Shown piece by piece: positions 3,001-27,000 of a DNA stretch of 64,000 bases. Made by a program: the position numbers. This stretch comes from Escherichia coli. Lineage in GTDB: Bacteria > Pseudomonadota > Gammaproteobacteria > Enterobacterales > Enterobacteriaceae. Each line of letters begins with the position of its first letter. Position 1 is the stretch's first letter. Location of the stretch: assembly GCF_013315695.1 (NCBI RefSeq), contig NZ_CP054353.1; one strand, given 5' to 3'.

Positions 3001-6000
3001 AAGCCACCATCCCCAGTACAGTAATGTCCAGCCCCCCAGCCAGTTGCTCGACTTGGGCTCATACGCGTAAAGGTTGAACGTTTTACTCACCAGTTCCGAA
3101 AGATAACCGCCCGTATTTTCCACAAATGACTTCAGCAGAAGCACGGTTGGTCCCAGACACAGGACCAGCGCCAGGAGCAACAAAGCCAGACCCAGATTGA
3201 GTTCAGACAGGATACGTATTCCCTTATCCAGACCGGACACCACTGAAATCGTCGCTAACCCCGTGATGACCACGATCAGAATTACCTGCACCGTTTCATT
3301 GATGGGCACCCCGAAAAGATGGTTCAAACCGGCATTCACCTGCAAAACACCGTAACCCAGTGATGTCGCAACGCCAAAGACCGTGCCTATAACAGCGAAA
3401 ATATCAACCGCATGTCCTACAGGTCCGTATATGCGATCGCCAATAATGGGATAGAGTGCGGAGCGCAGAGTTAAAGGCAGACCGTGACGGTAACTGAAGA
3501 ACGCCAGAATCAGCGCCACAATGGCATAAATTGCCCATGCGTGCAGTCCCCAGTGGAAAAAGGTCAGACGCATTGCTTCCTTAGCTGCCGCAACGGTTTC
3601 TGGAGTGCCAACGGGTGGCGAAAGATAATGCATTACAGGTTCGGCAACGCCAAAGAACATCAGGCCGATCCCCATCCCTGCCGAAAAAAGCATCGCAAAC
3701 CAGGAGTGGTAGCTGAAATCAGGCTGCGCATGGTCCGGGCCCAGCTTGATATCACCGTAGCGTGAGAGTCCAAGGAACGTGACACTCAGTAAAATCAGGG
3801 CCACAGCAAGGATGTAGAACCAGCTGGCATTCGTGAAGATTTGTTGCTGAAGTAGTTTAAAATTTTTGTCGGCGACATCCGGGAATACGGCGGCAAAGGC
3901 GACAAGAAGGAAAATTAGCAAAGCAGATGTAAAGAATACCGCTTTGTTAATCTGACTTGTAGACTTCTTTGGGATTGTATCATTTTCACTCATAATCATT
4001 TATTCCATTAATTAAATTCGCACTGGATAGAAGGTACTACCTCTCACAAAGTAGCAAAGTTCAACTGGCTATGCGGCGTTAATCGTAATGCATGGTGGAA
4101 TGTTGAGGTGTACTGGCAATAGCGGACACTACCATTTGTTCTTTTTTTAAGCGGCCATCTGATGATATTTTTCCCTGAAGGCTGCCGGGGAGATATTCCC
4201 CAGACGAGAGTGACGACGCTGACGATTGTAGAAAATCTCAATGTATTCCCGTATTACTGAGATGGCTTCATCCCGGTTATTAAAACGATAGTGGCTCAGG
4301 CTCTCATTTTTCAGCGTTCCCCAGAAGCTTTCCATCGGAGCGTTGTCGTAACAGTTACCTTTACGCGACATTGATGTTTTCAGACCAAACTGCTCCTGTA
4401 TGACCCGGTAATCGTATGCGCAGTACTGTGAACCTCGATCAGAGTGGTGGATTAGCCCGGCAGGTGGGCGCTGGCTCCTGAGCGCCATAAACAGGGCTTT
4501 ACCTGTCAGCTCTTTTGTCATGCGCTCTCCCATGGCGTAGCCGACAATTTCGCACGTATAAACATCTTTGATGCCAGCGAGGTACAACCATCCCTCCTGT
4601 GTGGCAACATACGTCAGGTCCGCCACCCAGACCTGATTTGGTGCTGTAGGAGCGAACGTCTGGTTCAGCAGATTTGGCGCAACTGGCAGATTGTGGTTCG
4701 AGTTCGTAGTCGCTCTGAACTTGCGTTTCTGCTTACAGCGTAGCCTTAGCTCCTTACGAAGACGTGCCAGTCGGTCACGACCAACGATGATGCCATTCTC
4801 TGCCAGCTCCGTCTGGAGCCGCCGGGTTCCATATGTTTCGCGAGTGCGGATATGTGCCACCTTAATCTCCAGTTTTAGCCGCTCATCACTTTGTTTTCTG
4901 TCTGAGGGTTCATGCTGTACCCAGTTGTAATAACCGCTCCTGGATACACCAAATACCTGACACATCGCTTCAATGGGAAATTGTTGTCGCCATTGTTCGA
5001 TTAACGCGTATTTTTCAGCGACTCCTGTGCAATTTAATATATCTCGCTCAAGGCGAGCTTCATTTAACGCCTTACGCAGTTGCAGAATTTCAGATTCCAG
5101 TTCAGCCACCGTGCGGGAACCAGGAGTACCGAGCCCTTTTCTGGCGGCGGTAACCCATTGTCCTAAAGTGCCTTCAGGAAGAGATAATCGGGAAGCGCCT
5201 TCACTGATCGAAAGTTGATTTTCAAGAACCGTTCTGACAGCTTCGGCTTTGAACTCTTTAGAGTAACGTTGGGTTTTTCTGCTCATTATTAGCTCCTTCT
5301 GATGCCATTCTATTTCAGGAAGGAGTGTCCGTTAAACTCAGGCTACCTCATTGGTTCCCACTACTTATTTGGTGGACACCACTTTGTCTAATTCGTCAGA
5401 TTCTGACCAGACGGTTCAGGCTGTACGCTTACAAACAACTAGTGGAAATACTTGTACTTTATAATTTCAAGGGTACGGGTCCGCTTCGTTTGATTTGCGT
5501 GTTTTTAACAATTTTAAAACCCAGACATACTGTTCCGGATGTGGCCCCACCAAAATTTCCACTGTTTTGTTCATTTGTCGGGCAATCATTTTATTGTCCG
5601 CGCTGGCAATGCAAGCATCCATTGGTGGCCGAATTTCAATAGTCAGGAGATGTTTTTTTTCATCATAAACCGGGAAAAGTGGTATAATCATAGCCTGACT
5701 GATGTTCATCAGACGTCCAATGATTGGTAATGTCGCTTTATAGGTCGCAAAAAAATCAGCAAATTCACTGTATTCAGGACCATGATCCTGATCTGGGAGG
5801 TAATATCCCCAGTATCCCTGGCGTACTGACTGAATAAATGGTTTTATCCCATCCTCCCGGGCATGTAAGCGCCCCCCGAATTTACGCCGTACTGAATTCC
5901 AGACATAATCAATCACTGGATTTCGTTGCTGATGAAACATGGCGGCCATTTTTTTTCCCTGAGCTGCCAGCAACATTGCAGGAATATCCACGCTCCAGCC

Positions 6001-24000: not shown

Positions 24001-27000
24001 GAGTCTGCGGATGGATGCCTTTTCTGTCCGGGCTGTAAGCGAACCACACTGCAGGTGCCAACGCTGACCCGGCATTGCGGTCATCACGAACATACGCCCA
24101 CAACCGCCCGGTCTTCGTCTTCTTATTACCCGGCAGCAGTACCTGGACCGGGGTATCATCGGCATGGAGTTTGCAGTCAGTCATGACATAGCCATGAAGC
24201 GCCTCTTCCAGCGGAGACAGCAGCCGGCAGCATGCATCCACCCAGCCCGACAGCAGTGAACGGCTCAGCTCCACACCTTGCCGGCCGTATATTTCTGACT
24301 GGCGATACAGCGGGGTGTGCTCTGCATACTTCGAGGTCAGCACGCGGGCCAGCAGCCCCGGTCCGGCGATACCCCGCTCGATGGGCCGCGAAGGTGCAGG
24401 TGCCTGCACGATGGCATCGCACTGAGTACAGGCATGTTTTTCCCGTACCGTCCGGATAACCCGGAAGGCGCTACGCATCAACTCCAGCTGTTCGGCGGTA
24501 TCCTCGCCCAGATAGCTCAGTGAACCGCCGCAGTTCGGGCAGCACGGCGCCGCAGGCAACAGTCGCTTTTCGTCACGGGGTAGTGATTCAGGGAACGGCT
24601 TACGGGTGCGGGTCTGACGCAACGGACGCTGTACTGCCGGGTCATACACCCTACCAGTCAGCGTATCGCTCTCTTTCTGAAGCCGGTTCAGATCGGCTTC
24701 CATTTGTGCGATACGGCGGGAGACTTTTTCGGAACGACTGCCGAAGTTCATCCGGCGGAGTTTATCCAGCTGCGCCTGCAGATGGTCTATTTCGCGCTCC
24801 CGGTTGCTCAGCTTTTCCTGCAGGGCGTGGATCAGCGCTTCCTGTTCGGCCAGGCGCTGTTTCAGCAGGAAGATGTCGTCAGAAGAGATGTCGTTCATAA
24901 GCCCGTATTTTACCGGGCTTATTCTGTGACAACCAGGATAAAGAGATTTACAGCATGGTCAGGGAGGTCAGCAGCCGCTTGGGCTGTCGCCAGTCGATAC
25001 CTTCCAGCAGCATCGCCAGCTGCGCCTGCGTAAGGAACACTTTGCCATCACGGGCTGACGGCCAGGCGAAGCGCCCACGCTCCAGCCGTTTGGTCAGGAG
25101 GCACAGTCCGTCACCGGTGGACCACAGCAGTTTAACCTGACTGCCGCTGCGGCCCCGGAAAATGAAAACATGGCCGGACATGGGATCGTCTTTCAGCGCC
25201 GTTTGTACTTTCGCAGCCAGGCCGTTGAAGCCATTTCTCATATCGGTGATACCGGCAACCAGCCAAATTTTGGTCCCGGAAGGTAACGGGATCATCGCTT
25301 CAGTTCCTGTATCAGCAGAGTCAGGAGCTTTTCGCTGACATTGCCATTGAAGCGGAGCGTCCCGTGCCGGAACGTTACCTCACAGCTGATACTGAGGGTT
25401 TCCGGGTCCTCTGCGAGCGATTCTGGCTGTTCGGCAGCTGCATCGAGAGTCACAGGAAGTAGCTGGGGGCTCTCTGAAGAAGGTAATAGCAGCTTTCCCT
25501 CGCGCCATTGTTGTCGCCATTTGAACAACAGATTGGCGTTAATGCCATTTTCAAGAGCAAGTTTTGAGATGGATATCCCGGGTTCACAGGAGGCAGCAAC
25601 GAGCAGCTGTTTAAATTCGGGAGGATAATTAGGGCAGCCTTTTCGCCTGCCGGGAGTCACATTTTTCTGCATATCTGACACTTTGGTTCCCACTACTTAT
25701 TTGGTGGACACCACTTTGTCTAATTCGTCAGATTCTGACCAGACGGTTCAGGCTGTACGCTTACCACTATTTTATCCCTGTTGAATTTGGTTAAGCCGGT
25801 GCAGACGCGCCGGGAAACGCACACCTGAACCGGCACAATAAAATACAATACAACCCCCCTGTTACTGGAGATACGAATGGAATGACGAGGCAGCCTGTCA
25901 GTCACAGGGGGCTGTTGGCATAAAATCAATGGAAAGGCCACCAACACCGGAATTAAGCTCCACAGTCCCCGCACTGGCAATCCATTCCCGGGAAAGGCAT
26001 CACCGCAAACTGCTCCGGAGGCAACCATTACAGCCTCTGTAACGGATTATCAGCCCTGGCATCTTCCGACGGCACCTCCTGCCGCCCCCACGCCCTGCTG
26101 TATACCCCGGTACCGCAGCGTGGGCAGCACTTTTCCCCCTCATAATCTTCGTCACACATCACACAAAACCACTTTCTCACCTTCACCGTATAATCCGGAA
26201 CCGTCATGCCCTGCAGATGCAAACGACGGGCCTCTTTCTCTGCCGGGTCAAGCCAGGTACATCGCAGCAGGATTTTTTCAGCGACAGTCATCTGGTCATG
26301 TTCAAACCACGGTGGTTGTCCGTCATTGCCCCGCTGAAGTGTTAACGGGCATCCACAGGACACACAGCACAAAACGTCCTGTCGGTTGTGCTTCGCAGCT
26401 TCTTTCGCCGTAACAAAATGGCCTTTGCTGTCATTCGCCATATAACAGTTCAGAATTCGCATATTTCCTCCTGAGTTGTCCGGGGAATACTGAATCCTCC
26501 GGTCTGGCAGTGTGTGCAGTACTGCTCCCCATAATAATCGTGGTGACATTGTCTGCAGTGCCAGCTGGCTTTACGCACCACGGGTAAGGCATCCGGTACG
26601 AATTGCTGCAGACGTTTAATCAACTGTATTTCTCTGCGCTCCGGCCTGACATAAGGGCACTGTTGACCGTGCTCTGTCAGCCTGTCGTCAGTGTGTTCAA
26701 ACCAGGGAAGTTCAGTGTCGTATTGCGGATGGTATCTGAGTGCACTGCCACACAAGTGGCAGGTGTAGTGAGCATAAGGTGCGGCCTGTGCAGTACGGGC
26801 GCCCGTCAGACGTCCGTTGCCATCAAGAGCGATAAAGGATTTTGCGTACATAGTCATATTCCTTAGCCGCCAGACGACACGCAGGCAACAGCCGTCCCGG
26901 TACGGGCAGCGTGGTCAGGGTGTGAATGGCGGTTCAGTTAAAATCTGGACTGGAGTTTGGGTAAAGCAGGCTGGTTGCTGTTACAGCACTGTGGTTGTCA

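Follow-up and report, generated by a model that had tools for sequence, protein, structure and literature searches.

An 82-bp fragment passed over by annotation pipelines bounds a 20–23-kb amplifiable unit in Escherichia coli. The fragment lies in a 64,000-nucleotide stretch of contig NZ_CP054353.1 (assembly GCF_013315695.1), referred to here as the window. It is one end of ISEc8, an insertion sequence (IS) of the IS66 family, and is repeated 20 kb away at the tip of a much larger ISEc8 copy; the DNA between them carries the ferric-citrate uptake operon fec and the shf cluster for lipopolysaccharide (LPS) modification. The junction predicted for a duplication of this segment is present in two complete E. 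coli genomes, each of which carries the segment as three tandem units. We think it likely that the region consists of layered IS debris in a widespread mosaic island, and that the 82-bp direct repeat acts as a homologous-recombination hinge for unequal exchange. IS remnants that serve as hinges for duplication and amplification are a known kind of event, seen here in a published island, and no new mechanism is involved; our literature search found no paper describing the 82-bp stub or the amplification of fec/shf.

The two copies of the repeat, at 5351–5432 and 25683–25764, are identical at 82 of 82 positions, lie in direct orientation and start 20,332 bp apart, so that the identity and shared orientation reported in the first-pass annotation of this DNA hold. 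Both edges of the identity are sharp: on the left there is an a/t mismatch at 5350/25682, and on the right the solo copy is followed by AAACAACT and the other copy by CACTATTT. An exact 82-mer of this kind cannot have arisen by chance within 64 kb. The second copy is the last 82 bp of the large ISEc8 element. The solo copy, or stub, matches the left inverted repeat (IRL) end of that resident element at all 82 positions, inverted repeat (IR) included, and an IS66-family copy on the enterotoxigenic E. coli plasmid pETEC_74 at 81 of 82. It is made up of the IRL and the untranslated leader of ISEc8 (the annotated tnpA start of the large copy maps to 25672, relative to the repeat at 25683–25764), contains no coding sequence, and has its IR tip at 5432, facing lpxM. 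As had also been seen at first reading, it begins exactly where an IS3-family element, here called IS600-like, ends: the right IR of that element reads ...CTCAGGCTACCTCA, its last base being 5350. A scan of 5351–5432 for consensus promoters found none reading into the IS600-like element.

The arrangement is shared by many strains. Among the 5,426 complete E. coli genomes used for this and all junction searches, at least 80% of the interval 4000–26500 was present in one colinear place in 436, including enteroaggregative E. coli (EAEC) 042 (99.7% identity), and the IS600, 82-mer, lpxM junction was present in 454 (~8%), among them EAEC 042 and many clinical lineages resistant to carbapenems. The layout is therefore not an assembly collapse of repeats, a danger that the first-pass annotation had pointed out.

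Unequal exchange between the two copies predicts a deletion, in which IS600 and the 82-mer are joined to the right flank, and a duplication, in which the whole ISEc8 and the 82-mer are joined to the lpxM flank. The duplication junction was found in two of the 5,426 genomes, those of AHB5 (GCF_988242765.1), a blood isolate from the UK, and CREC-629 (GCF_002787545.1), a urine isolate from Korea. AHB5 contains four exact 82-mers at spacings of 22,616, 22,617 and 22,615 bp, hence three tandem units, which differ by no more than one mismatch and one or two indels. Its 82-mers are flanked, in order, by IS600 and lpxM, by ISEc8 and lpxM (twice), and by ISEc8 and CACTATTT. In CREC-629 the array again consists of three such units, here with a period of 22,635 bp. 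The array units exceed that of the window because they contain a group II intron (ltrA) within the IS3-family transposase pseudogene; many relatives have this intron, which brings the unit to 22.6 kb. The new junction is exact and lies within contigs, for example at position 26147 of CREC-629. We regard the two arrays as probably independent events; their outer flanks differ (CACTATTT in AHB5 and AAGAGGTT, the short configuration, in CREC-629), as do their chromosomal contexts (tRNA-Ser/infA and nanC, respectively) and several protein alleles.

Several points weigh against the repeat acting as a hinge. The window itself has a single unit and nothing there shows recombination, and just two arrays were found among the 454 carriers. 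The predicted deletion junction, sought with synthetic queries carrying the flank that starts at 25765 or at 55335, was found in 0 of 5,426 genomes. One of the CREC-629 units crosses the record origin and is error-rich, with frameshifts, and array copy numbers, being taken from assemblies alone, may be imprecise. The position of the crossover cannot be placed, the repeats being identical, and TnpC, encoded by the large ISEc8 copy, is predicted to be inactive from its domain coverage. The missing deletions could reflect selection for fec/shf, or chance. The suggestion in the first-pass annotation that the direct repeats could support excision or deletion thus stands in part: the two arrays indicate that they have served as a substrate for recombination, and what is seen is triplication instead of deletion.

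These same features bear on whether the 82-bp repeat is inert and the AHB5 and CREC-629 arrays are artefacts of long-read assembly. Exactly three units in both arrays, near-identity of the units, the frameshift-ridden CREC-629 unit at the record origin and the derivation of both arrays from assemblies would all suit an artefact. We nevertheless consider this explanation unlikely, because each assembly was made by a different laboratory in a different country, the outer flanks and contexts are not the same, the new junction is exact and internal to contigs, and the usual assembly error at repeats is their collapse, not their expansion.

Extra copies might also have been made by way of a circle, if intrachromosomal recombination across the 82 bp had excised the segment together with ISEc8 and the product had been re-integrated by homology into the sister, with no unequal exchange. 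This route predicts the same junction, and two other assemblies contain circular 21–23-kb contigs of an overlapping fec/shf amplicon that close over ~235 bp of IS3 homology. We rate it as very unlikely, because no circle closed at the 82-mer was present among the 72,556 plasmid records searched and no chromosome with the matching deletion among the complete genomes; the deletion and the circle were the products for which the first-pass annotation had proposed looking in related assemblies, and neither appeared there. From the end-products themselves the circle route and sister exchange cannot be distinguished.

We favour unequal sister exchange at the 82-bp hinge, and infer the following order of events. 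An ISEc8 copy would once have adjoined lpxM/msbB2; the IS600-like element would have inserted into it, and a later deletion or recombination would have left its terminal 82 bp. A second ISEc8 copy, 20 kb away and in the same orientation, would have lost 153 bp of tnpC through slippage between CCTGT repeats. The 82-bp direct repeat would then have permitted unequal exchange between sister chromosomes, presumably RecA-dependent, to produce a first duplication with the whole ISEc8, 82-mer, lpxM flank junction, after which recombination between the 22.6-kb units would have given the larger array. At 82 bp, the repeat is longer than the few tens of bp required for RecA-dependent exchange in E. coli.

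For tandem amplification in E. coli, the accepted explanation is unequal crossing-over between direct repeats of the IS type (PMC12892994). The AHB5 and CREC-629 arrays resemble the IS-repeat gene duplication-amplifications of heteroresistant E. coli (PMC12892994, PMC12953903) in being bounded by direct repeats, in their head-to-tail arrangement, in having the repeat at the junction and in the near-identity of their units. They differ in that one of the repeats is an 82-bp stub, in that the cargo is iron uptake and LPS modification with no resistance gene, in having no known selective agent, and in being known from database comparison only.

The presence of two sequences of the same IS family, in direct orientation around cargo, also invites the view that the 20-kb segment forms, or once formed, a composite transposon with IS66 copies at its ends, whose transposase gave it mobility and made the arrays. 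ISEc8 copies elsewhere could supply transposase in trans; ISEc8-type matches occur in 3,791 of the genomes. However, the sole IR tip of the stub (5432) points into the segment, and the stub ends on the outside, at 5351, in internal IS sequence, which leaves no usable left end, and the resident TnpC lacks 51 amino acids of the DDE domain. No 8-bp duplication is seen around the element, nor around the unit, whose left copy has lost its outer end. The array junctions are exactly those that homology predicts, with no new duplications; the whole ISEc8 next to the lpxM flank occurs in none of the 72,556 plasmid records; and the 20-kb unit is so far known only as tandem copies in situ. Because there is no left transposon end and TnpC is damaged, a composite transposon is untenable, and we consider it extremely improbable. 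The IS ends are wrongly oriented for such a transposon, and the one plausible route is homologous recombination across the 82 bp.

The large ISEc8 copy had been described as complete in the first-pass annotation, and it does keep both IRs (23476–23497 and 25743–25764, complementary at 18 of 22 positions, GTAAGCGTACAGC..., starting GTAAGCG) and matches to the Pfam families LZ_Tnp_IS66, zf-IS66, DDE_Tnp_IS66 and DDE_Tnp_IS66_C. It is not intact. Compared with the canonical 2442-bp ISEc8 (plasmid NZ_CP148375.1), the copy shows ~99.5% identity over the full length, with 10 mismatches over the first 2060 nt, one over the last 220 nt and a single gap of 153 bp. This gap is an in-frame deletion in tnpC with its joint near 23695–23705, between two CCTGT repeats. 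TnpC is 461 amino acids long, compared with 512 in ISEc8; the 51-residue gap removes the DNNIAENALR block, and the DDE_Tnp_IS66 match covers model positions 1–222 of 284. Judged by its position after the CWAHARRK motif, the deleted block would hold the catalytic glutamate. Because these 51 residues of the DDE domain are deleted, the copy is probably non-autonomous. It shares with ISEc8 the tnpA-tnpB-tnpC order and the GTAAGCG... IRs, and the 82-mer is the ISEc8 IRL end; it differs in length (2289 bp compared with 2442 bp), in the tnpC deletion and in having no target-site duplication, and the second ‘copy’ in the window is just the 82-bp end fragment. An origin of the last 224 bp from another IS66-family element, which comparison with pETEC_74 had suggested, was rejected once the canonical ISEc8 showed that it is the pETEC_74 tail that diverges; apart from its simple 153-bp deletion, the window copy is ISEc8 from end to end.

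The deleted tnpC copy is found together with the remnant of a DUF6404 gene that adjoins it in the window and with a phytase-like gene in two records of the plasmid collection. NZ_CP030285.1 aligns across the deletion joint without a gap, and the same 1386-nt tnpC is annotated in CP088535.1. The deletion is therefore older than at least part of the spread of this module. CP088535.1, a circular record of 41,067 bp, looks like an excised CP4-like integrative island (tyrosine recombinase, YeeS-T-U, CbtA). It carries two zinc-ribbon gene pairs, the defective ISEc8, the phytase-like gene and ISKpn26, and has no fec or shf.

Another truncation state is seen on pETEC_74, where a 70-bp ISEc8-type end stub lies near lpxM in the same orientation (6001–6350). 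Here 279 bp, resembling the 3' end of an IS630-family transposase gene, separate the stub from the shared flank AAACAACTAGTGG, so that the stub/lpxM neighbourhood exists in at least two truncation states. A plasmid origin of the junction found no support: a whole ISEc8 beside this lpxM flank was seen in no plasmid record, and the pETEC_74 state differs from that of the window.

IS66 elements make an 8-bp target-site duplication, and mismatched 8-bp flanks are a signature of recombination between copies in Agrobacterium (PMC6778807). The large ISEc8 copy is flanked by gaacaaaa and cactattt, as the first-pass annotation had recorded, and is thus without such a duplication. Full-length copies on pETEC_74 and pZ1323HEC0108-2 likewise lack clean 8-bp duplications and could not be used as positive controls. 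On the right inverted repeat (IRR) side, the element cuts a DUF6404 gene, of which codons 91–115 alone are present; the remaining 90 codons, its 5' part, were not found anywhere in the 64-kb window. F-type conjugative plasmids commonly carry an intact DUF6404 gene of 115 amino acids. The dead fragment has decayed further, with a Trp-to-stop change (TGG to TGA) at 23437–23439 relative to the copy in AF3. On the IRL side, an open reading frame (ORF) of 88 codons has no match in Pfam or NCBIfam. A simple insertion of ISEc8 into DUF6404 was rejected, since the 5' part of the gene is nowhere in the window and the IRL-side ORF matches no family.

Judged from these flanking sequences, the ISEc8 copy joins F-plasmid-derived DNA to CP4-like island DNA, and its mismatched flanks would then be due to a recombination or deletion in which another copy took part, and not to simple insertion. 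The block adjoining the IRL is 29.6 kb long and includes the CP4-like genes for zinc-ribbon proteins, YfjI, Ag43, YeeR and CbtA/YeeU. In 177 genomes this block is absent and the IRL lies directly at 55335, inside an ORF (55151–55453) that is intact in the window, which suggests either a deletion next to the IS or recombination with a second copy since lost. The situation is like that of the IS66-mediated 270-kb deletion in Agrobacterium pAt15955, where a single IS66 element also has two different 8-bp flanks; there, however, the two-copy parent and its duplications were observed, whereas parental copies are lacking here and the argument is indirect (PMC6778807). The ISEc8 copy illustrates that IS elements complete in appearance can be dead and that flanks which do not match mark old recombination joints, a help in tracing the assembly of such islands.

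The IS600-like element also lacks a target-site duplication. For IS600 this is 3 bp long (ISfinder entries), and the flanks of the window copy are tgt and ttg. Its IRs are of the TG...CA type (4104–4130 and 5324–5350), and RefSeq labels the equivalent copy an IS600-family transposase. To its left lies the betT upstream region, with no IS66 sequence. The element truncates an older ISEc8 copy. The first-pass annotation had offered two origins, insertion of the IS3-family element into an older IS66 copy or a deletion that left its tip. The stub is cut off exactly at the IS600 end, but simple insertion does not account for the betT flank and the tgt/ttg mismatch; because of these, deletion or recombination would have followed insertion. 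Because neither IS copy has a target-site duplication and the 5' part of DUF6404 is absent from the window, both mark secondary rearrangements, in line with the IS-mediated rearrangement that the first reading had drawn from the abutting solo copy and the unmatched IS66 flanks.

The transposase of the IS600-like copy is a single fused ORF of 379 amino acids (4147–5286, minus strand) in place of separate orfA and orfB genes with a programmed −1 frameshift. When compared with the copy in AF3, which RefSeq annotates as frameshifted, the window copy is 14 bp shorter at 5032/5033 and lacks the sequence around the usual slippery site. Such a natural OrfAB fusion could be a constitutively active transposase.

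Two circular, non-mobilizable ‘plasmid’ records, NZ_CP060942.1 and NZ_CP021680.1, with lengths of 21.1 and 23.3 kb, are colinear with positions 4065303–4088922 of AHB5 and contain IS3, DUF2254, betT, IS600, the 82-mer, the shf locus, fec and IS1F. Both close over ~235 bp of IS3 homology, and may be either free circles or collapsed tandem repeats. They look like a second type of amplicon or circle, in which a full IS was paired with a short remnant of that IS, and this suggests that extra fec/shf copies arise repeatedly. It is a further and doubtful step to propose that in clinical E. coli fec and shf/lpxM2 form a recurrent, selected module of variable copy number, with the ISEc8 stub and the ~235-bp IS3 remnant as hinges that would give overlapping amplicons or circles in four or more independent isolates (blood, urine and carbapenem-resistant collections). 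If that were so, extra copies would raise ferric-citrate uptake or the modification of lipid A/LPS during infection. The fec system is a proven iron-uptake system in urovirulence.

The features of the window are collected in Table 1. Calls in the shf locus come from ORFs and from the AF3 locus (99.8% identical) as annotated by RefSeq, and the coordinates of the IS3-family pseudogene were transferred from the locus of a relative with an offset of 2015.

Table 1. Coordinates of features in the 64-kb window.
Feature	Position	Strand	Basis or remark
IS600-like IS3-family element, 1247 bp	4104..5350	-	IRs and RefSeq annotation
Solo 82-bp stub	5351..5432	-	IRL end of ISEc8-type IS66-family element
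lpxM/msbB2	5467-6411	-	shf locus (5467..9364)
virK	6476-7426	-	shf locus
capU/rfbU	7431-8519	-	shf locus
shf, polysaccharide deacetylase	8522-9364	-	shf locus
Frameshifted IS3-family transposase pseudogene	9550..10746	+	Annotation
fecIRABCDE ferric-citrate uptake operon	11644..19189	-	ORFs and annotation
IS1F-like element (pseudogene)	19426..20200 (right end approximate)	+	Left IR 19426-19448
‘Esterase-like activity of phytase family’ gene	21916..23274	+	Travels with damaged ISEc8 in some plasmid records
DUF6404 gene 3' remnant, 25 codons	23396..23473	-	Cut by ISEc8 IRR; F-type plasmid origin
ISEc8-type IS66-family element, 2289 bp	23476..25764	-	IRs, ORFs, alignment, Pfam
tnpC	23513-24898	-	ORF and RefSeq
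tnpB	24948-25295	-	ORF and RefSeq
tnpA	25292-25672	-	ORF and RefSeq
29.6-kb block	25765..55334	.	Adjoins ISEc8 IRL; CP4-like module, SNF2, type III restriction-modification

The gene content and order of the shf and fec loci, and 99.7% identity over 4000–26500, are shared with EAEC 042, in whose genome paper they are Ec042-4769-72 and Ec042-4776-82, respectively; the passages of that paper covered here do not discuss the IS66 stub or copy-number variation (PMC2808357). Beyond the IS1F-like element come small IS3 and IS5 fragments as well as a ymgB/ariR-like gene (20890–21183), and no tRNA gene was found in the whole window. The SNF2 gene and the type III restriction-modification system are succeeded on the right by nanM, nanC and fimB. 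We take the fec island in the KpLE2/leuX region of K-12 to be comparable to the fec/shf segment of the window.

Within the 29.6-kb block, 45705–55104 (plus strand) encodes an SNF2/DrmD-like helicase (963 amino acids), a type III methyltransferase (1039 amino acids) and a type III restriction enzyme (1126 amino acids); behind this type III restriction-modification system and its SNF2 partner lie an HNH gene and a phosphorothioate-dependent restriction enzyme, as remnants. Further right, a 161-nt direct repeat with 75% identity (61161–61321 and 62226–62386) corresponds to the paralogous fimB/fimE recombinase genes, as the neighbouring annotation indicates.

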